Shown here: positions 4,438 through 56,038 of the stretch, in pieces | Layout of the letters: each line of letters opens with the position of its first letter | How positions within the stretch are numbered: the first letter of the stretch is position 1 | From: Chiloscyllium plagiosum | Lineage: Eukaryota | NCBI RefSeq assembly: GCF_004010195.1 | Contig: NC_057718.1 | Coordinates: forward strand, 97,637,300 to 97,701,299 | Length of the DNA stretch: 64,000 nucleotides | Reading direction: 5' to 3' | Program-made: the position numbers and the translations under genes | The notes under the pieces: generated by a model | The model's database searches: none | Told to the model about the DNA's origin: nothing | Seen by the model: only the letters and a program-made list of their open reading frames with translations

Positions 4438-4573
4438 ATGAACCCTTCATGCTACTAATTTCATTCTGCTAGTCAAAATGGGCCCATTTTAGTCATTTGG
4501 TATTTCTTTCTTTGCCTCATACTGTTGAACTTCAGATCACTATTAAGATGGGGATTTTGTTGTTTCCTTTCAG

Positions 4574-4738
4574 GTGCTCTCGGGTCAATTTCTCTCCGAC
4601 AAGAAAGTTGGGACTTACGTGGAGATAGACATGTTTGGTCTTCCAGTGGACACGAGAAGGAAGGCTTTCAAAACGAAAACGTCACAGAACAATGCGGTAA
4701 ATCCAGTCTGGGAAGATGACCCCATCGTGTTTAAAAAG
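4574..4738 (+). CDS. PLCB1: PLCB1 internal coding exon (165 nt, C2 domain N-part)
   Basis: tttcag|GTG...AAG|gttcgt. Encodes [55 protein letters not shown], near-identical to the vertebrate PLCB1 C2 domain as I recall it. Phase 0/0. Confidence 0.96.
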
Positions 4739-4829
4739 GTTCGTCCTTTCCCTTTCAAGACTTTGCAGCATTACTGTATTTCCTTTCAGGCCAGTTAACT
4801 TTCTTCCTTGAGGCGAAATGCAGAGAGAG

Positions 4830-9376: not shown

Positions 9377-9595
9377 AGGCGAAAGACAGGACCGCAGATG
9401 CTGGAGATTAGAGTTGAGATTGTGGTGCTGGAAATGCACAGCAGGTCAGGCAGTATCCGAGGAGCAGGAGAGTCGACATTTCAGGCAAAAACCCTTCATC
9501 AGGAATAGTCCTGATGAAGGGCTATTTGCCCGAAACGTCGATTCTTCTGCTCCTCGGATGCTGCCTGACCTGCTGTGCTTTTCCAGCACCACACT
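9377..9595. mobile_element. palindromic Penelope-derived mini-element (family A) with hammerhead cores
   Basis: 15-bp TSD CAACAATAATTCAGT (9362-9376, 9596-9610). Inverted arms around ATAG; + strand CTGATGA-AGGGCTATTTGCCC-GAAACGTC. Confidence 0.85.
9507..9543 (+). ncRNA. minimal type I hammerhead ribozyme motif
   Basis: Helix I AGUC/GAUU, core CUGAUGA (9511-9517), helix II GGGC/GCCC, GAA plus palindromic ACGU plus C17. Activity untested. Confidence 0.7.
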
Positions 9596-10120: not shown

Positions 10121-10327
10121 ACGGGTGGACCACATAGAATATGAGTTCCCTGATTGGGGCTGTTAATCTGGTCCAATGAGGGAGCCCTGGCTAACAAATA
10201 TAAACTGGAATGACAAAGGTTCTGTTCACTGTGAGAGCTGGCTCTGAGGGAGCTGGATCAGTGTCAAGGCCTCTCCATGTGTAAGGTGACATGATGACGG
10301 GATACCGGCCTCTGTCGAGTTATTTAA
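10097..10327 (+). mobile_element. Gypsy solo LTR
   Basis: TAGTGATTGTAATGAGGTCAG...ATAGAATATGAGTTCCCTGATTGGGGCTG...GAGTTATTTAA, matching 14455 and 19381. Confidence 0.85.
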
Positions 10328-10404
10328 CCCACCTACTCCAGCGGCAAGTAATAGCATCAAGGGATAGCGAACTATATAAAGATCTGTTTTATCAGTCATG
10401 TTAA

Positions 10405-10730
10405 ATATGTTGATATATCATGTGATGTGGGCATTGCTGGCTAGAGGTCAGTCAATCACATTGTTGTCGGTCTGGAGTCACAGATAGGCCAGACCAGATA
10501 GGGAGGGCAGATTTCCCTCCCCAATGAACACTAGGGAATGAGATGCGTTCTTAACAAGAATAAACAGTAGATACATGGTCAGCACTAAATTAATGCTTTT
10601 GTCCAAATTTGGTTATTTGATTCAAATGTCATCTTGAATTGGGGCCTTGCTGGGATTCAAAACACATCCTCCAAACATTAGTCTGGAGTTCGATATTGGC
10701 AGTCCAGTGATGTCACCACTATGTAACCAG
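10405..10730 (-). mobile_element. second tRNA-SINE family, decayed copy
   Basis: Reverse complement resembles 51515-51962. Confidence 0.5.
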
Positions 10731-10874
10731 CTCTGCTGGTTAATGTTAGAGAAAAAATTTGGAATTTTTAATCATTTGCCCAAACCTTTTGAAAGATGTT
10801 TTTTAAACAATTGTATTCTTCCATATTAATTGAAATATGTACATTTTTTAAATAGAAACCTGTCTAATTTTCAG

Positions 10875-10974
10875 GTTGTGCTACCATCTCTGTCATCGTT
10901 ACGGATATCGGTCTATGAGGAAGGAGGGAAATTTATAGGCCACCGCATACTGCCTGTACAGGCTATTCGACCAG
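10875..10974 (+). CDS. PLCB1: PLCB1 internal coding exon (100 nt, C2 domain)
   Basis: tttcag|GTT...CCAG|gtaagc. Encodes [33 protein letters not shown](G). Phase 0/1. Confidence 0.96.
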
Positions 10975-11194
10975 GTAAGCATACATTTGTTCCGTATACT
11001 TGTCTGCAAAATTTTCTGAGGTTTCATTTTATTCCCATTCACTCTTTCTATCTGTACCTTCAATGAAAAGATAAAAAAACACATTACTAGATATTTTCAT
11101 CGTGCCCTCATCAGGATGCATGCAAGAGTACCAAATCCTAAGCAATCACAACGTTTTATGCTAAAGTAGGAAAGGGCGCTGATTGTTTGGCAAG

Positions 11195-11710
11195 TCCATA
11201 AGGACCATAAGAAACAGGAACAGGAGAAGGCTATTTGGCCCCTTGAGCCTGCTCCACCATTCTATAGGATCATGGCTGACTCGACATTCCTCACATCCAC
11301 TCTCCTGCCCTTTCCTTGATTCCCCAATTGATCAAGAATCTCTCTCTCTCTCTGCCTTAAATATACACAAGGATTCTGATCCCCACAGCTCTCTCTGTGG
11401 CAAGGAGTTCCAAAGACTCACAACTCTCTAAGAGAAGAAATTCTTCCTTATCTCAAATTGACGCATCTTTATTCTGAGTCTATACCCTCTGGTCCCAGAC
11501 CCTCCCATGAGGGAAACATCCTCTCAGCATTGACCCTGTCAAGCCCCTGAAGGATCCAATATGTTTCAATGAGATCCCCTCTCATTCTTCTAAACTCTAG
11601 TGAATAGAATCCCAACCTGTTTAGCTTTTGCTCATAAGACAATTAATCCATACCATTGTTCATCCAAACAAACCTTCACTGAACTGAATCCATTGAAATG
11701 ATATCTTTCC
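11195..11710 (-). mobile_element. CR1 3' fragment
   Basis: Similar to 3625-4100, with a CATAAG repeat tail. Confidence 0.8.
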
Positions 11711-11727
11711 TCTAGACACTGAATAAC

Positions 11728-12131
11728 ACAGTGGCTCAGTGGTTAGCATTGCCTAGCACCAGGGGCCCGGGTTTGATTCCACCCTCAGACGATTGTCTGT
11801 GTGGAGTTTGCACATTCTCCCCGTGTCTGCGTTGGTTTCCTCCGGGTTCTCCGTTTCCTCCCACTGTCCAAAGATGTGCAGGTTAGGGTGGATTGGCCAT
11901 GCTAAATTGCCCACAGTGTCAGGTGCAGTAATCAGGGGGAAATACAGTTTAGGCGGATTGACAATGCTATATTGCCCCGCAGTGTCCAGGGTTGTGCAGG
12001 CTAGGTGAATTAATCATGGGAAATGTGGAGTTAGAGGGATGGGGTGGGGTTTGGGTGGAATGCTCTTCGGAGGGTCGGTGTGGATTCAGTGGGCCGAATG
12101 GTTTGCTTCCACACTGTAGGGGTTCTTTGAT
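11728..12131 (+). mobile_element. HE1-type V-SINE (older, internally duplicated)
   Basis: A/B boxes, V-domain and LINE-like tail. Confidence 0.8.
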
Positions 12132-16285: not shown

Positions 16286-17189
16286 CAATTCACTGAGATT
16301 GGCTCAACATTTTTCGATTAGAAAATGGCTGCCTGAGTGAACTCCTAATTAAATACCTGGACGCTTTACAGGAGAGTCCAGGAACTATCAAAGGAGCCAA
16401 GGCCACCTTGCATGTGGACAAGGGTGTTTCTGCAAGGCTTGCACATGCCATTCACTTTATGGGAAAAAGCAGAGGCAGAAATCAGGAGGCTGGGAAGCAA
16501 AGCAGTGATCAAACCAGTCGAGCTTGTGGAATGGGCAGCACTGGTCAGAGCAATTGTAAAGCCCGACAGATCGGTTCACCTTTGTGGGATTTCAAACAAA
16601 TGGTAAACCACTTCTTGCAGCTAGATAAATACACAGTCCCTCACATGGAGGATTAAAAATCAAACCTGGCAGGGGGGCTGTCCTTCACGAAACTGGAGAT
16701 GAGCCATGTGTACCTGCAATAGCAGTCAGATGAAGATTCCTAGATGTTACAATTAATACCCGTGAAGGTTTGTACCAGTATACAAGACGGCCATTTGGGG
16801 TATCATCAGCCTGTGTAACTTTTCAGCGGAGAACATTTTACAAGGTCTACCCCAGGCCGCCATTTTTTTAGATGACATGCTAATAACAGGGAAGACCAAT
16901 AAGGAGCACTTCGAAAACTTGGACAATGTCCTTAGATGTTTCTCCCAGGTGGACATGCGCCTTAGAGGGGAAAAACGTGTTCCAGGCTCCCCAAGTGACT
17001 TACTTAGGCTACAGAGTCAACCAGACTGTGTTACACCTGGAAGGTAAAGTGAGGGTGGTCAAAGGTGCCCAGGCTCCTACATCTGTACCAGAGCTTAGGC
17101 CTTTCCTTGAGTTGGTGAATGATTACAGAAAGTTCATACATACATTCTGGGACCTCTGCATCAACTCCTACAAAATGGTACATCTTTGG

Positions 17190-17496
17190 GCTGGTACGGT
17201 TCCTCAGTGGTCAGCACTGCTGCCTCACAGCACCAGGGACATAGTTTTGATCCCTGCCTCGGGTGGAAGAATTGTCTGTGTCGAGTTTGCACGTTCTCTC
17301 CATGGGTGGGTTTCTTCCCACAATCCAAAGATGTGCAGGTTAGGGTGAATTGACCATGCTAAATTGCCCATAAGTGATAGTCAGAGGTAAATATAGGGTA
17401 GGGGAATGGGTCTGGGTGGGTTACTCTTTGGAGGGTCAGTGTGGACATGTTGGGTTGAAGGGCCTGTTTCCATACTGTAGGGAATCTAATCTAATC
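17190..17496 (+). mobile_element. HE1-type SINE nested in Gypsy pol
   Basis: HE1 head and AATCT tail. Confidence 0.85.
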
Positions 17497-19497
17497 TTCG
17501 AAATGATCATGCAGCCAAGCTATAGTTTTCAGGGAAGTGAAGATACAACTATCATCCTCGCAGGTATTGGCACACTATAATCCTGAGCAAGATCTGGTAT
17601 TGACATGCAGCCTTGGGGTGGTATTAGCTCAGAGGAGGTCGAATGGAGAGGAACGCCCAACAGCATATGCACCTAGGATGCTGGCTAATGCACCCAGATA
17701 GAGAAAGAAGGTTTGGTGGTCATATTTGCAGACAGGAAGTTCCACCAATATCCTTATGGACTTAAATTTGTAACAGTAACAGGCCACAAACCCCGGCGAT
17801 GTCTACTTTCAGATGACAAGGCAATGCTGCCCATAGCTTCAGGCCAATTCAGCGGTGGGCTGTAATACTGAGTGTGTCCGGGAGGTTCAGTAGAAAATGT
17901 AGATGCATTGAGCCGCCTCCCACTGGTGATACCACCATTGGAAGAGTTCGTAATGGTTTTAAATTTTCTGGACACGCTTCCAGTCACAGCTGACTACATC
18001 AGACTTTGAACACAGAAAGACCTGCTCCTGGTAAAACTGGAACAGTAGGTGGTGATGGGCAAATCCAAAGGGCGGTCACAACCAGAATTGGATCCTTTTT
18101 GGACCCGGAGAGACCAGATCACCATCGATGATGGCGTATTATTACAGGGAGCAAGAGGGATGGTCCCGAGCAAAGGGTCACCTCCACAGGGATATCCAGG
18201 GGTTTTCATAATGAAGATGTTGGCAACAAATTATGTCTGGTGGTCAGGATCAGATGCCAACACAGCTTCCTTGGTGGGGCAGTGCCCAGAGTGCCGACAA
18301 GGACAAGAATTACTGCCAGCATCTCCCCCATGTTCGTGGGAAAGGCTGGGTAAACCCTGGACTCAGAAACACATCGCCTATGCCAGTCCTTTCATGGGCT
18401 CAGTGTTCTTAGTCATTGGCCGCCCAGTCAAAGCAGCTGGACATGCAGAGAGTTCATTCATCAAACACGGGATGATGATCAAAAGACCATCTGTGTCTTT
18501 TGCAATACATGGACTCCCATTAAGGATGATCACAGATAACGGGCCATTGTTTACATGCAGGGAATTTGAGTCTTTCTGAAAGTGACTTGGGATATAACGT
18601 TTAAGGACAGCTCCACTCCATTCATCATCCAATGGCCTGGTAGAAAGAGCAGTCCAAACTTTGAAGGCAGGTTTAAAGAAACAGCCTGCAGTTTCACTAG
18701 ATACCAAACTGTCCCAATTCCTATTCGATTATCCGGCCACCCCCTCATGGAGCCACAGAGATTGCTCCAGCAGAGTTGCTAATAGGGAGAAGACTCTGAA
18801 CCTGGTTAATTCGGATCTTCCCAGAACTCGGGGGGACGGTGGGGGGGGGCTGAAATGGCATCAGGAATGCCAGTGCCGGCCACCAAATTTCGCCAAGTAA
18901 AAGAGACGGCTTACTTCAGGGAATGAAGTTTGTTGTAGGAATCATGAGAATGGCCTTGCATGGGTTAGAGGCATGGTCAACACAAGGTCAGGTCTAGTGC
19001 CATATTAAGGAGCGACGGTCCTCAACAAGGTCATGGACCATATGGAAGCGGCAAATCCGCAGACAGTGTGGGAGAAAAATGTGCCCGGCCCCTTCGGAAC
19101 AGTCACAAAGACTGTCAGAACCATGGGTTCCCTCTCTCTCAAGTGTTGAAGAGACCTCTGAATCTGAGGTGGACATAGCAGATCTCGCAGCATTGACACC
19201 TTTGGCATCGGAAGAAGAGAGTTTCTCCCGAGGTGTTCCTGGCGCAAGGGGTGAGCTCCCTTGCATTCGTTGCGCCTGTATCCACCGCAGATTCTGGAAC
19301 CTGACCCTGTGCTAAAACACCCCAGGAGGAGCTACAAGGAAAAGGACCAGCCTATGTCCTCGGACTCCAAGGGCGACAGATGTAGTGATTGTAACGAGAT
19401 CAGCCAGGTGGACCTCATAGAATATGGATTCCCTGATTGGGGCTGTTGACCTGGTCCAATCAGGGAGCCCCGGCTGACAGATAAAAACTGGAATGTC

Positions 19498-38750: not shown

Positions 38751-38842
38751 CTCCTTATTGGAAAGTCCAATAACTTCCCTTAATCACAGATTCTAACCAT
38801 CTTCATCTCTTCAAATTTAACTGAGTTCATCGTTTTTAATCA

Positions 38843-38975
38843 GTCCTGATGAAGGGCTTTTGCCCGAAACATCGATTTTCCTACCTCTTGGATGCTGCCT
38901 GACCTGCTGTGCTTTTCCATCACCATTCTAATCTATACTCTGGTTTCCAGCATCTGCAGTCCTCACTTTTGCCTC
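38843..38975 (+). mobile_element. Penelope pLTR fragment (family A), hammerhead with a CpG mutation
   Basis: AGTCCTGATGAAGGGCTTTTGCCCGAAACATCGATT...CCAGCATCTGCAGTCCTCACTTT. Confidence 0.78.
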
Positions 38976-39417: not shown

Positions 39418-39602
39418 GAAAAAAATCCTGCTCAAGTATTCATGTGCACCCATTAGTCCTCATCGTTGTATCTATTTCATTGAGGATGCATCATATTATG
39501 TTGTATGGCACTCTGAACTATTGCCTTAGGTATTTACTAACGACAAGAGGGACAAAGCAAAGCAATTTAATGTGATCAATTGGTTTTTGTAAACCGCTGC
39601 AG

Positions 39603-39822
39603 AGGTGGAAGCCCAGACCGTGGAAGAGCTAAGACAGCAAAAACCATTTGTGAAACTCCAGAAAAAACACTACAAAGAAATGAAGGAACTGGTGAAGAAA
39701 CACCACAAAAAAACCACTGATTTGATCAAAGAACACACTGCAAAATCCAGCGAGTTTCAGAACGAGTATTTAAGGCGCAGGGTACTTCTGGAAAAATCAG
39801 CAAAGCGAGATGGTAAGAGGAG
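39603..39822 (+). CDS. PLCB1: PLCB1 internal coding exon (220 nt, distal CTD coiled coil)
   Basis: ctgcag|AG...AG|gtaggt. Encodes (E)[44 protein letters not shown]...KRDGKR(R). Phase 1/2. Confidence 0.96.
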
Positions 39823-39894
39823 GTAGGTGAATCATTCTCAAATACTTTTGACTGTGGGATTGTGTGTGCTTTCTAACATTGTTCTAACGTGGCT

Positions 39895-42115: not shown

Positions 42116-42338
42116 TTGGACAAAGTCAGAAGTCACACAACACCAGGTTACAGTCCAACAGGTTTATTTGAATTCACAGGCTTTCAGAGTGCTGCTCCTT
42201 TATCAGTTTATTTCACGTGATGGAGGAGCAGCACTCTGAAAGCTTGTAATTTCAAATAAACCTGCTGGACTATAACCTGGTGTCATGTGACTTCTGACTT
42301 TGTCCACCCCAATCCACCACCAGCACCTCCACGTCATG
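42116..42338. mobile_element. palindromic mini-element (family B), older copy
   Basis: GGACAAAGTCAGAAGTCAC...CTTTCAGAGTGCTGCTCC is mirrored by GGAGCAGCACTCTGAAAG...GTGACTTCTGACTTTGTCC. Hammerhead cores decayed. Confidence 0.8.
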
Positions 42339-42837
42339 ACTGCACAATAACTGCAGAGTAGAATTTTAGTTTGTTTGTCCTTCTTATTTATTTAACTGGA
42401 AGCTGATTGAGAATGGTCTCTTGTCTGATTTTTAATATGATTTGAGTTATTATTGTCACATGTACCGAGATACAGTGAAATGTATTGTTTTGCGTGCTAA
42501 CCAGACAAATCAAACGTTACGTAAGTAAATCAGGCTAATAGAACAGAATATAGTGTTACAGCTACAGAGACAGAGCAGAGAAAGATCAACTCTAATGTAT
42601 GAGAGGTCTGTTTATAAGTCTGATAACAGCAGGGAAGAGACTGTGCTTGAATCTGAGCTGGTGGTTTCTAAGCTGGCTCATGATTGAATGATTTGTTTAA
42701 TGGTATCCCTTTTAGTTGCCATTTGTTTTATTAGGAAAAATAAAGTCTGAGTTAATTGGATGTAGCTGGAAGACAGAAGCTTGTGCATAATCAACATGGT
42801 ACATTATACAGGATCAAGGAAGTGAGATATTACAATA

Positions 42838-45708: not shown

Positions 45709-45780
45709 CTCTCCGGTGGGGAATTGAACCCCGGACTCCCACGTGACAGGCAGGGATACTAACCACTATACTACCAAGGA
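45709..45780 (-). pseudogene. tRNA-Asp(GTC) pseudogene
   Basis: 72 nt TCCTTGGTAGTATAGTGGTTAGTATCCCTGCCTGTCACGTGGGAGTCCGGGGTTCAATTCCCCACCGGAGAG. C-A mismatches in the acceptor and T stems and several CpG transitions. Confidence 0.85.
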
Positions 45781-46184: not shown

Positions 46185-47130
46185 GATGTAGGTTTGCTCG
46201 CTGAGCTGGAGTGTTCATTTCCAGACGTTTCATCACCCTACTAAGGAACATCTTCAGTGGGCCACAGGCGAAGCAATGCTGAAAATTCCTACTTTCTATT
46301 TATATGTTTGGGTTTCTTTGGGTTGGTAATTTCATTTCCTGTGGTGATGTCATTTCCTGTGGTGATGTCATTTCCTGCTTTTTTTCTCAGGGGGTGGTAG
46401 ATGGGGTCTATCTCGATATGTTTGTTGATAGAGTTCCGATTGGAATGCCATGCATTTAGGAATTCTCGTGTGTGTCTCTGTTTGGCTTGTCCCTGGATGG
46501 ATGTGTTGTCCCAGTCAAAATGGTGTCCTTCCTCATCCATATGTAAGGATACTAGTGAGAGAGGGTCATGTCGTTTTGTGGCTAGTTGGTGGCTAGTTTT
46601 CTGCCTGTTTGTCCAATGTAGTGTTTGTTACAGTCCTTGCATGGTATTTTGTAAATGACATTAGTTTTGCTTGTTGTCGGTATAGAGTCTTTCAAGTTCA
46701 TTAGCTGCTGTTTTAGTGTGTTGGTGGGTTTGTGAAAGACACTAAACAGGCAACAAGCAAAACTAATATCATTCACAAAATACCGTGCAAGAACTATAAC
46801 AAACACTACATTGGACAAACAGGCAAAAAACTAGCCACCAAGGATACATGAACATCAACTAGCCACAAAACGGCATGATCCTCTGTCACTAGTATCCTCA
46901 CATACGGATGAGGAAAGACACCACTTTGACTGGGACAACACATCCATCCTGGGACAAGCCAACCAGAGACACACACGAGAATTCATGGAAACATGGCATT
47001 CCAACCGGAACTCAATCAACAACCACATCGGGTTAGACCCCATCTACCACCCCCTGAGAAAAAGAACAGGAAATGATGTCACCACAGGAAATGACATTAC
47101 CAACCCAAAGAAACCCAAACTTGTCATTGA
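46185..47130. mobile_element. Penelope-like element with inverted GIY-YIG arms
   Basis: Minus arm ~46185-46735 (NVIYKIPCKDCNKHYIGQTGRKL; HHFDWDNTSI...REFLNAWHS). Plus arm ~46738-47130 covers the same segment. Hammerhead-like CTGAAGA...GAAACGTC on the minus strand at ~46215-46260. Confidence 0.9.
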
Positions 47131-48997: not shown

Positions 48998-49212
48998 GGC
49001 AAAGTCAGAAGTCACAGGACCACAGGCTATAATCCAACAGGTTATTTAAATTCACAAGCTTTCAGAGCACTGCTCCTTCATGAAAACTCCGCCTGACAAC
49101 AGAGCAGCACTCTGAAAGCTTGTGATTTTAAATGAACCTGTTGGACTATAACCTGTTGCCCTGTGACTTCTGACTTTGTCCACCCCAGTCCAACACCGGA
49201 AACTTCACATCA
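48998..49212. mobile_element. palindromic mini-element (family B), older copy, inserted in a CR1 tail
   Basis: CAAAGTCAGAAGTCACAGG...AGCTTTCAGAGCACTGCTC is mirrored by GAGCAGCACTCTGAAAGCT...GTGACTTCTGACTTTG. Confidence 0.8.
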
Positions 49213-50822: not shown

Positions 50823-51138
50823 TTGAGCTGAGTGAAACAAAGAGTCCTTAGGTTCATCTTTGTCTATCAGAGAAGGAGCAAGTTGTTGCTGGTGTTGAAG
50901 TCTGTACTGAAGACAACCAATGCTGGAGATCACAGTGGGTCAGGCAGCATCCATGGAGAGAGAGCAAGCTAAGGTTTCGAGTCGCGATGACTCTTCAGAG
51001 CATGCCAATTGAGGTATTCTGCATGTATGATACAGTCTCAAATATCGACAAACAGGCACAAAGAAAAATATTTAGAGATTTTTTTTACTTTGGTGTGAAA
51101 ATGTGGACATGACACGGTTTCTCTTTTTGAACTGACAG

Positions 51139-51319
51139 GCCTGAATCAGCGAGCCCGGAACATCCCAGTTCCAGCGTCGAGCAAGAGCTTTCTGCCCTTG
51201 ACGCAGAGATGACGCAGAAGTTAGCAGAGCTCAAAGAACAACAGCAGCAACAGCTGTTAAACCTGAGACAGGAGCAGTATTACAGTGAAAAATACCAGAA
51301 GCGGGAGCACGTTAAGCAG
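51139..51319 (+). CDS. PLCB1: PLCB1 internal coding exon (181 nt, distal CTD)
   Basis: tgacag|G...CAG|gtgttg. Encodes [60 protein letters not shown]. Phase 2/0. Confidence 0.95.
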
Positions 51320-51514
51320 GTGTTGCTCAGAGTTTTGTTTTACAGCATGTGTGTCACTGATCATCAATGCATTGTTTTGGTTGATTTTGCAGAATTCTTG
51401 TAGCACTGATTGAAGCCATTCAGCCCATTGTATCTGCACCCGCTCTCTGGACGAGCAATTCTCCTTCTGCCTTTCCCCTATCATCTCCCAGTAACACTTA
51501 ACACATCCTAATGA

Positions 51515-51962
51515 GGGGGAAGTGATGGCCTAGTGGTATTAACACTGGACTCTTATCCCAGAGAGGAGACAGTAAGGTCTGCAGATGCTGGATTTTCCTG
51601 CTCCTCGGATGCTGTCTGACCTGCTGTGCTTTTCCAGCAACACACTCTCAACTCTTACCCCAGAGACACAGGTAATGTTCTGGGGACCTAGGTTTGAATG
51701 CCTCCACAGCGGATGGTGCAATTTGAATTCAGTAAAAATCTGGGATTGAGGGTATATGAAAACCATTGTTGATTGTCAGGAAAAACCCATCTAGTTCACG
51801 AATGTCCTTTAGGGAAGGAAACTTCTATCCTTACGTGGTCTGGCCTATATGTGACTCCAGACCCATAATAATGTGGTTGACTCTTAACTGCCCTCTGGGC
51901 AATTAGGGATGGGCAATAAATGCTGGCCGAGCCAGCGATGCCCTCATCCCGTGAATGAATAA
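51515..51962 (+). mobile_element. second tRNA-derived SINE family, interrupted at 51564-51650
   Basis: A-box-like TGGCCTAGTGG, B-box-like GGTTTGAATGCC, tail GGGCAATAAATGCTGGCC...(TGAA)n. Confidence 0.65.
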
Positions 51963-52325: not shown

Positions 52326-52753
52326 GCTTCTTTTGCAAGTACCTAGTAGCAACTTGTACCATCGACAAGTTGCATTGCTGAAATTCACCAAGGATTCTTC
52401 AACAGCATGTTCCAGAACTGTCACCACGACCAGCTGGATGGGTAAGGACAATAAATAAACAGAACACAGAGCCAGTAAGGTAGCCATGCTGGACTATACA
52501 GAGAGAGAGAGAGAGATGACTGGTGGTGGTTTCACCTGAGGGTCAACATGCCTGAGCTCAGGGGAGAGGTTAAGGAGAAGAGACCTTCACCAGTTAGTGC
52601 GGGAATTGAGCCCGTACTGTTGGCAACACTCGACATTGCAAGCCACATATCCAACCAACCCCAGTAAAGAACACAAGCAACAGCATGTTAAATCACCTCC
52701 AGTTTAAGTGCTACTGTAACAGTTGTGGGGTCATTACAGTTGTCAAATTTTCA

Positions 52754-52957
52754 TGATTTGGAGATGCCAGTGTTGGACTGGGGTGTACAAAGTTAAAAAT
52801 CACACAACACCAGGTTATAGTCCAACAGGTTTAATTGGAAGCACACTAGCTTTCGGAGCGATGCTCCTATCACCTGATGAAGGAGCGTCGCTCCGAAAGC
52901 TAGTGTGCTTCCATTTAAACCTATTGGACTATAACCTGGAGTTGTGTGATTTTTAAC
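52754..52957. mobile_element. palindromic mini-element (family B) with hammerhead core
   Basis: 12-bp TSD GTCAAATTTTCA (52742-52753, 52958-52969). Inverted arms GTTAAAAATCACACAAC...GGAGC and GCTCC...GTTGTGTGATTTTTAAC. Confidence 0.88.
52870..52906 (+). ncRNA. minimal type I hammerhead ribozyme motif (family B)
   Basis: CAC-CUGAUGA (52874-52880)-A-GGAGC guc GCUCC-GAA-AGCU-A-GUG. Palindromic AGCU helix III and CAC/GUG helix I. Confidence 0.72.
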
Positions 52958-53517
52958 GTCAAATTTTCAGCTATTCTCCCTAAATGCTCAATTAACAAAG
53001 ATTCCACTGCAGTCAAATCATCCATTGCATGTGAATTGCTATGGGCCATTTGCACTGACATGTTATAAAAGGGCCTTTCTTAAACATCTTCAAAATAATT
53101 AAAAGCATCTGGGAATGTTCAATGAGTGGTGAAAAGGTTTCACCATGACAAATGATCCCAACCCATGATTTAACATGAGAAAAATAATTTTGCATTTTAT
53201 GGCAAATTAGTCAGTCTACAAACTGGACAGTACTTAATAGTTTCAGTATCTTCCTTCTGATATCATTCTTTTCAAGCAGTTTGTTTCCCATTTTCCCCAT
53301 TTAATGGTCATTCTTCTTTAATCTTGTGCGCTGTTCCTCCAAATTTCTCCTTTTCTTCATCCAGATATGCATTCCACACATAATCTTCATCCTGTCTTTC
53401 CCATTGTTGAAAGTGACATATCCACAATCTCAGATCTTCACGATCCAAGATCAATTTCCTCTAACTTCAATTTGCTTTGCAAACACACTCCCCACAACCA
53501 TTTTCTTTTCAGGTCTG

Positions 53518-54178
53518 ATTTGGAGGTGCCGGTGTTGGACTGGGGTGTACAAAGTTAAAAATCACACAACACCAGGTTATAATCCAACAGGTTTAATTAG
53601 AAGCACCGGCTTTCGGAGCGCCGCTCCTTCATCAGGTGGTTGTGGAGGACACAATTGTAAGGCACAGAATTTATAGCAAAAGTTTACAGTGTGATGTAAC
53701 TGGAATTATACATTGAAAAATACCTTGATTGTCTGTTGAGTCTTTCATCTGTTTGAATACCATGATAGTTTCACTTCTTTCATGTGTAAATCACAAAGCT
53801 TTTTTAAAAGTTGGATTCTCAGGTTAACTGTAACAATTGGTGTTAGCTAGACAATATGTTGAAGGTGGAGAAAGTGAGGTCTGCAGATGCTGGAGATCAG
53901 AGCTGGAAATGTGTTGCTGGAAAAGCGCAGCAGGTCAGACAGCATCCAGGGAACAGGGGAATCGACGTTTCGGGCATAAGCCCTTCTTCAGGAATGGGGA
54001 AAGTTTGTTTTTATCTTAGCCTGCTGGACAAACTTTCCCCATTCCTGAAGAAGGGCTTATGCCCGAAACGTCGATTCCCCTGTTCCCTGGATGCTGCCTG
54101 ACCTGCTGCGCTTTTCCAGCAACACATTTCCAATATGTTGAAGGTGTTAGCCCCCTGTGTTCTCTGTGTGATTTTTAA
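53518..54178 (-). mobile_element. family B Penelope-type insertion (pLTR + 3' UTR + short inverted end), hosting a family A palindrome
   Basis: 13-bp TSD CTTTTCAGGTCTG (53505-53517, 54179-54191). Minus strand CACCTGATGAAGGAGCGGCGCTCCGAAAGCC; inverted TGTGTGATTTTTAAC at the far end. Confidence 0.82.
53868..54130. mobile_element. young palindromic mini-element (family A) with hammerhead cores on both strands
   Basis: 16-bp TSD CAATATGTTGAAGGTG. ~104-bp arms with one mismatch and a 19-nt spacer. CTGAAGA...GAAACGTC at 54045-54072 (+) and 53991-53964 (-). Confidence 0.92.
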
Positions 54179-55956: not shown

Positions 55957-56038
55957 GTAGTCGTGGCCGAGTGGTTAAGGCGTTGGATTAGAAATCCATT
56001 GGGGTTACCCAGCGTAGAGTCGAATCCTGCCAACTACG
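55957..56038 (+). pseudogene. tRNA-Ser(AGA) pseudogene
   Basis: 82 nt GTAGTCGTGGCCGAGTGGTTAAGGCG...TAGAAATCCA...GAATCCTGCCAACTACG. T arm and B box disrupted (AGAGTCGAATCC), acceptor-stem mismatch. Confidence 0.88.

Follow-up and report, generated by a model that had tools for sequence, protein, structure and literature searches.

A short inverted Penelope-like element insertion in Chiloscyllium plagiosum, and arm ends that look partly clustered near its hammerhead motif

Why should a short inverted insertion in the Chiloscyllium plagiosum genome have its centre of symmetry at the 5′ edge of a hammerhead motif? The first-pass annotation of this DNA, seeing such a fold-back in two sequence families, proposed a mechanistic link between ribozyme structure or cleavage and the template switch that makes the inversion. 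We analysed the insertion, at 52754-52957, with its relatives in the window, by which we mean the whole 64,000-nt stretch of DNA analysed (NC_057718.1, positions 97,637,300 to 97,701,299, forward strand); positions given below are those of the window.

The insertion and its identity

Exons for the C-terminal part of PLC-beta are found on the plus strand at 39593-39823 and 51131-51400, upstream of the insert (Pfam PF08703, matched by 2 of 150 frames in one scan; 205 candidate plus-strand frames were scanned overall), and the host gene is probably, at the family level, PLC-beta. A C2-domain exon at 4547-4795, also on the plus strand, is consistent with a PLC-beta gene. The window further holds an LTR-type remnant with reverse transcriptase and RNase H-like fragments on the plus strand (16766-17698), and tRNA-model matches above the gathering score at 45709-45780 and 55957-56038, probably the heads of tRNA-derived SINEs.

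The insert is flanked by an AT-rich 12-bp TSD whose left (52742..52753) and right (52958..52969) copies agree at 12 of 12 positions; the last three bases of the left copy are also the family B continuation past the tail end, as read from the consensus of loose read ends before 53516. Between the copies are 204 bp, 52754-52957. The minus strand of 52754..52791 is a 38-nt Penelope-like element (PLE) 'tail', the 3′ end of the element, present on one arm only; its end is sharp in the reads, of which 10,129-11,728 in each run stop at the equivalent base, 53516. Next to it is the tail-bearing pLTR arm (52792..52872, minus strand), which lacks an intact hammerhead core and whose 5′ end falls inside the core, at C3+1 if a 2-nt deletion is allowed and otherwise at C3+7 (52868). 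The inverted, tail-less pLTR arm (52871..52957, plus strand) reaches from C3-3 to the pLTR end. The junction loop (52869..52880), read directly from the sequence, continues the tail-less arm in sense orientation and on one reading includes a 2-nt microhomology at 52871-72. The arms pair over 77 nt (52792-52868 with 52881-52957), with four mismatches and a 12-nt spacer; the whole insert folds at -146.3 kcal/mol (z -22.75), a stability equalled by 0 of 200 shuffles, and its centre of symmetry, 52873.5-52874.5, is C3 of the hammerhead. It is a young PLE insertion, with about 5% divergence between its arms. The 204-bp hairpin and 12-bp TSD of the first-pass annotation are confirmed by these data, as is its inversion centre at the 5′ edge of the ribozyme. 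The 'leader' of about 37 nt that it described exists as an unpaired end, of 38 nt, but is no leader, being the 3′ tail of the element on the minus strand.

A typical PLE insertion consists of an inverted 5′-truncated copy, a direct copy and a 30-40-bp tail on one side (PMC8557442; PMC3846280). The insert is a head-to-head pair of short PLE 3′-end copies, one with the tail and one without, and shows the marks of EN+ PLEs: a head-to-head inverted 5′-truncated copy, a one-sided tail in the 30-40-bp range and a TSD without mismatch. The element sense is taken as the minus strand, and the 38-nt end as the 3′ end, because a non-inverted copy, B3 (53516..54178, minus strand; TSD 14/15), shows both. 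B3 is a longer family B copy with tail, pLTR, hammerhead (C3 at 53635) and upstream region; it is 88-91% identical to the insert, has only about 15 nt of inverted pLTR end, and is interrupted by a nested family A hairpin (53868..54130). B3 is non-coding; with its 15-nt inverted pLTR end it has short terminal inverted repeats as well as a tail. Reads extending to 53849 number in the thousands, and the B3-type form may be abundant.

The insert shares with the published PLE insertion unit (PMC3846280; PMC8557442) the head-to-head truncated copies, the one-sided tail, the TSD (8-10 bp in the rotifer examples) and a small junction palindrome. It differs in that both arms are cut to about 80-120 nt, so that the entire insert is a hairpin, with no ORF attached, and in the piling up of arm ends at the 5′ edge of the hammerhead, which the accessible parts of those papers do not report. 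Non-LTR retrozymes are likewise non-coding, PLE-related and equipped with a type I hammerhead, but by definition are made of tandem units (PMC7229834; bioRxiv 10.64898/2026.07.22.740005). A retrozyme was rejected, this being a single head-to-head insert with one intact core and not a series of head-to-tail tandem units each bearing a motif. The insert is an ordinary PLE insertion.

Poseidon of Anolis carolinensis (PAc; PMC11167929) resembles the present elements in having two internal reverse transcription start sites that bound the tail, an AT-rich target, nicking and extension of both strands, and a hammerhead about 100 nt upstream of the start sites. The PAc ORF starts in the hammerhead (PMC11167929), whereas the family B frame there closes after 8 codons; family B has an ATG-like end at the tail end, unlike PAc. 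This ATG-like word is seen in an older copy (42330-42340), in the read consensus and at the unrelated locus L002 (630-637), and the family B tail end may be an ORF start. A branch-point and 3′ splice-site-like stretch is present at the family B pLTR end. In a search confined to the window and to contig pattern scans, no ORF with RT and GIY-YIG was found linked to the family B pLTR, and no recognisable ORF was seen by eye in the upstream frames of L002. Pattern scanning of metagenome contigs gave two loci that share the hammerhead type, AATAAA and an ATG at the position equivalent to the tail end but are otherwise unrelated; pattern scans of genome and viral contigs for the hammerhead type gave none.

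The plus strand of the insert carries an intact minimal type I hammerhead motif (52871..52905) with a predicted cut between 52902 and 52903. It reads CAC (52871-73), CUGAUGA (52874-80), a bulged A (52881), stem II (52882-94), GAAA (52895-98), the palindrome AGCU (52898-901), A (52902) and GUG (52903-05), in agreement, part by part, with the plus-strand hammerhead of the first-pass annotation and its AGCU in place of ACGU. A sequence scan of the minus strand of the insert found no CUGANGA and no intact core. Four sequence features of minimal PLE hammerheads are present, on the plus strand only: the CUGANGA and GAAA core, the unpaired base 9/10.1, the pair G10.1-C11.1 and a palindromic helix III region. 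Since the published definition asks only for a palindrome at 15.2-16.2 (PMC4209133), AGCU for ACGU is an allowed variant. Type I topology, the unpaired 9/10.1 base, G10.1-C11.1, the palindromic 15.2-16.2 and a short stem I are shared with the hammerheads of PMC4209133; AGCU and A at position 17 differ from them, and stems I and II, at 3 and 5 bp, fall short of the 4-5 and 7-8 bp of the Schistosoma consensus. In Schistosoma, motif pairs with 100-700 bp between them and opposite strands for the two members had been described before (PMC4209133).

Rfam covariance models gave 18 matches at E<=1 with no hammerhead family among them, only sub-threshold microRNA hairpin models and two tRNA matches. 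A microRNA precursor was rejected, the match being that of a generic long hairpin (82.7 bits, gathering score 249). In the predicted fold of the 204-nt hairpin, stems I and II have a pair probability of 0.0; in the motif alone, as a monomer, stem II has 0.87 and stem I 0.02, and a dimer through AGCU evaluates to a predicted -18.9 kcal/mol, against -10.3 per monomer MFE. The hammerhead is predicted to be locked within the long hairpin of a plus-strand transcript. An active cis ribozyme in the host pre-mRNA was rejected on that prediction, and the motif is unlikely to cut the host pre-mRNA.

Arm ends near the hammerhead

Blast with six probes found eight inverted insertions, a lower bound for the window. 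In five of the eight, both arm ends lie between C3-36 and C3+7. These are the insert at 52754 (+1/+7 and -3); two older family B hairpins on the plus strand, at 42117..42338 (arms ending at about C3-10 and C3) and 49000..49212 (about C3-11 and C3+3), neither with a clear TSD; and two family A hairpins on the minus strand, at 9377..9593 (TSD 16/17; ends within the 8 nt shared between its two cores) and 53868..54130 (16-bp TSD; ends at C3-36 and C3-17). The hairpin at 53868-54130 has intact cores on both arms. Those near 42117 and 49000 belong to an older subfamily of family B, at 70-76% identity, and fold back at nearly the same place, as had been claimed for these palindromes.

The other three join elsewhere. 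They are B3, a family A insertion at 51565..51650 (minus strand; TSD 15/16) whose inverted arms do not overlap, 26-28 nt of tail being joined to a tail-less arm that starts at the predicted cut site, and an inverted repeat of a third PLE family at 46342..47119. The join at 51565-51650 has a 2-nt microhomology. The inverted repeat at 46342..47119 is centred in endonuclease-coding sequence, about 460-475 nt upstream of the hammerhead-like motif of that family (46257, minus strand); no TSD was found for it, and its right arm stops short of the pLTR. A non-inverted family A stub with a 13-bp TSD (12/13), at 38840-38973, starts about 6 nt above C3.

At E<=0.001 the third-family fragment hits 496 proteins, aligning with the C-terminal part of RTs; RVT_1 was found in five of the eight long matches scanned and a sub-threshold GIY-YIG in two. 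Run directly on third-family fragments, Pfam matched none of the four PLE-like fragments, and an Atlas search gave GIY-YIG on 17% of members at 0.89, which is a lead only. On these protein matches, the third family is linked to PLE coding sequence. Families A and B are no more alike than expected by chance (scores equalled by 195 and 286 of 1000 shuffles), and homology between them was rejected by this shuffle comparison. The description of the second family as unrelated is right at the sequence level only.

Raw reads from four runs (two organisms, at most two studies) were aligned to 53490-54026 at 80% likeness, giving 150,285-199,625 aligned reads per run. Across 53622-53648, 43-44% of family B depth is kept in all four runs, a fall of about 56% or 3.1% per nt, against 89-95% (0.1-0.2% per nt) over the next 55 nt upstream, again in all four runs and in both organisms. 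Family A depth is kept at 24-28% across 53987-53997. The loose ends of family A at 53995-53996 share another upstream sequence, with an agreement of 0.47-0.62 compared with 0.35-0.37 at tail ends or random flanks, and part of both depth steps may be subfamily divergence.

Among the 15 read joints listed, of 1837, there are 11 with a strand change. All four listed family B joints have one end at 53606, the other being 53606, 53638, 53643 or 53644; the informative ends among them, 53638, 53643 and 53644, are C3-3, -8 and -9. Reads are pooled by clipping at 53606, so these four joints, with 43-122 reads each per run, are not single junctions; the top one compatible with the insert at 52754-52957 (90-122 reads per run) pools several. 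Four listed family A joints end at 53982-53995, around C3 at 53991, one having 53902 opposite, and three listed joints pair 54004-54008 with 54026.

Clustering of this kind could mostly reflect ascertainment, with homology between subfamilies ending at the hammerhead and symmetric hairpins being the easiest to notice. The different upstream sequence shared by the family A loose ends fits such an explanation, as does the choice of the 45-nt zone after the data had been seen. Hairpin junctions, however, were read directly and not through loss of homology, and the probability of at least five of eight insertions in the zone is 2e-3 to 3e-7 under three crude uniform nulls, so that we hold ascertainment to be a most improbable main cause.

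Each hairpin might instead descend from an amplified palindromic master (non-autonomous, MITE-like), or from a template with built-in inverted microhomology, its centre having been fixed once. In family A the joint 54008/54026 is found in 4522, 4078, 4460 and 1400 reads in the four runs, compared with a depth of about 7,500 at 54005 in run X20, although the 54026 side is also the end of the alignment reference. The family A hairpin at 53868-54130 is either an amplified master or has a junction fixed by a built-in inverted repeat; possibly it is a mass-amplified palindromic non-autonomous PLE derivative, present in two organisms. Because its junction, at 54008, is common to thousands of reads, this hairpin is not an independent event, which weakens the recurrence in two families on which the first-pass annotation had relied. 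Family B joints, in contrast, are many and small, and each of the three family B hairpins in the window has a junction of its own; as a general account, copying from a master is very unlikely.

Clustering near the 5′ edge of the hammerhead looks real but partial. The earlier idea of fold-back at the hammerhead survives insofar as five of the eight insertions cluster and depth drops in all four runs, and fails for the three that join elsewhere. In a literature search that covered few subscription papers, no study came up that had placed PLE inversion junctions relative to the hammerhead or a start site. The clustering is a modest refinement of the known PLE insertion pattern.

Cleavage, structure or fold-back

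Self-cleavage of the hammerhead would create an RNA 5′ end where the cDNA stops and folds back. One arm at 51565 does begin at the predicted family A cut site, family B depth drops by 18-20% at 53606/53608, where 53606 is the first base after the predicted cut, and that same base is the common end of the four listed family B joints. The hairpin centres, however, lie about 28 nt upstream of the cut; since the predicted cut is 28 nt downstream of C3, hairpins centred at C3 would have been copied from uncut RNA. Nor do we read the 53606 step as cleavage, because that base borders two private mismatches (53607-53608) and an indel polymorphism in the B3 reference, and because the arm of the insert at 52754-52957 runs to the core and yet is clipped at exactly 53606 under two of the four scoring schemes. 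Across the family A cut there is no step at all (depth ratio 0.98-1.02 in all four runs). Taken as the general cause, cleavage has in our estimate hardly any chance of being right; a minority of ends may come from it, the 51565 arm being one candidate.

Because reverse transcriptase reaches a structure from its 3′ side, the enzyme should stall there, at the 3′ side of helices, and not at the 5′ edge. This bears on the proposal that a folded hammerhead, or a protein bound to it, stops the enzyme at the 5′ edge and brings about the switch that makes the inversion. Such a stop would suit the clustering of ends at one structural landmark in two families without sequence likeness, the listed family A top joints at 53982-53995 surrounding C3 at 53991, and the lack of a clear TATA box in family A; PLE protein, moreover, helps hammerhead folding in vitro (PMC11167929). 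Against it, stem I is predicted to form with a probability of only about 0.02 in the monomer, about 44% of family B arms read through, three of the eight inverted insertions join elsewhere, and PLE clades without canonical hammerheads make the same inverted insertions (PMC8557442). We regard a structural stop as unlikely.

For the anole element, PMC11167929 reports that RNA-seq ends are absent at the cut and that hammerhead mutants, including catalytic ones, have no effect on PLE insertion in vitro, and finds cleavage unnecessary for the nicking and extension of both strands by the purified protein. Together with the missing family A step at a cut 28 nt downstream of C3, this goes against the ribozyme-inversion link put forward at first; a ribozyme causing the inversion is poorly supported.

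Self-priming, in which a single strand folds back, was proposed for rotifer PLEs on an antisense template (PMC3846280). Short palindromes at the junctions, such as the 4-bp stem with a 2-nt loop at 52869-52878, speak for it, and in four of the five hairpins one may take the loop to continue the tail-bearing arm. In the insert at 52754-52957, however, the loop is a continuation of the tail-less arm and the tail belongs to the opposite one, and each arm has sequence that the other lacks (2 to 10 nt, depending on the reading, on one side and 38 nt on the other), which is not expected from fold-back of one cDNA and counts further against the template switch first proposed. At 51565 the arms share no sequence. 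Because loop and tail are on opposite arms here and the arms at 51565 do not overlap, two separately templated cDNAs are needed. The other four hairpins fit either fold-back or twin cDNAs. Fold-back alone also leaves unexplained why reads in which the second arm stops at the pLTR end are about as numerous as those that carry the tail, and we think it decidedly unlikely, if a little less so than copying from a master.

Two cDNAs and the RNA start

In LINE-1 twin priming, each of two nicks primes a cDNA, the product being an inverted segment that lies between TSDs and shows microhomology where it is joined. PLEs differ in that the second start site is fixed, at the pLTR end, so that the arms overlap and a hairpin results. 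Two sharp read starts are indeed seen here, at the tail end (53516) and at the pLTR end (53553), depth rising in run X20 from 28.7k at 53548 to 48.5k at 53563. PLE protein nicks both strands and extends them, and it begins reverse transcription at two internal RNA sites, one at either end of the tail (PMC11167929).

The explanation that we favour, and consider rather probable, is that two cDNAs primed from opposite nicks ran to a likely RNA 5′ end just before the hammerhead core, where they were joined. Transcription would begin, from a pLTR promoter, at about C3-8 to C3-10. Those cDNAs that are primed at the 5′ copy of the start sites would then be run-off ('strong-stop'-like) products of 90-130 nt, two of which would make a hairpin centred at the 5′ edge of the hammerhead; read-through RNAs would give longer arms, and the hammerhead would be a passenger.

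B3 has a candidate core promoter at 53643..53675 (minus strand), made up of an exact TATA box (53675-53669), the only one in 217 nt upstream, 40 nt above C3, and an initiator-like motif 32 nt on, with +1 at A 53643 (C3-8) as predicted from the TATA-initiator spacing rule. The predicted +1 coincides with the listed joints 53643 and 53644, and the tail arms of the older hairpins (42117, 49000) start up to C3-10 and C3-11, matching it. We sought the TATA/initiator pair after the joints had been seen; among 5000 shuffles 2 have one within 15 nt of the end, as does 1 of 583 window tiles. An RNA start at C3-8 is a prediction from motifs, made in a single copy and post hoc. In the third family an exact TATA box stands 47 nt above the core (C3-47), and one within a single mismatch is present within 60 nt in 5 of the 12 copies examined. 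None of the four family A copies with long upstream sequence (1473, 13591, 42926, 45084) has a TATA box in 60 nt, even with one mismatch allowed, and the initiator-like motif that these copies have at C3-4 doubles as the 5′ strand of stem I. According to a review, the pLTR is where the promoters of PLEs are located (PMC6765202); the D. virilis promoter is TATA-less, and transcription from it starts 46 nt upstream of a 75-nt intron whose end is at helix I (PMC2377424). The family A-type copies 24494, 38846 and 45084 carry a pyrimidine tract and CAG two bases before the core, resembling a 3′ splice site; a 3′ splice site was considered as another cause of the edge, and family B has no AG just before the core.

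Run-off does not account for everything. Because both arms of the insert at 52754-52957 end short of C3-8 (C3-3 and C3+1/+7), trimming or early stops must be added to it, and one of the 51565 arms starts at the cut site. We infer nevertheless that run-off at the RNA start is the best reading. A more specific version, in which the hairpins are pairs of 'strong-stop' cDNAs, twin-primed by a dimeric RT-endonuclease and each copied to the capped end of an RNA whose pLTR promoter places that end at the hammerhead's front edge, is tentative, and we would give it somewhat less than an even chance.

The population of stubs matters modestly, as it bears on how PLEs make inverted copies and complete integration. 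With many TSD-bounded stubs in one genome, counts of junction types can separate twin priming, fold-back, run-off and cleavage. If the specific version is true, such scars, in their tens of thousands, would locate the start site and preserve a record of the second-strand step of PLEs, and templates that are palindromic or have short inverted ends, such as the family A hairpin and B3, would be favoured as non-autonomous parasites, since their two cDNAs can anneal. If the arm ends mark the RNA start, the hammerhead would lie at the very 5′ end of the transcript and cutting would remove the cap, a testable role for the hammerhead other than causing inversions.
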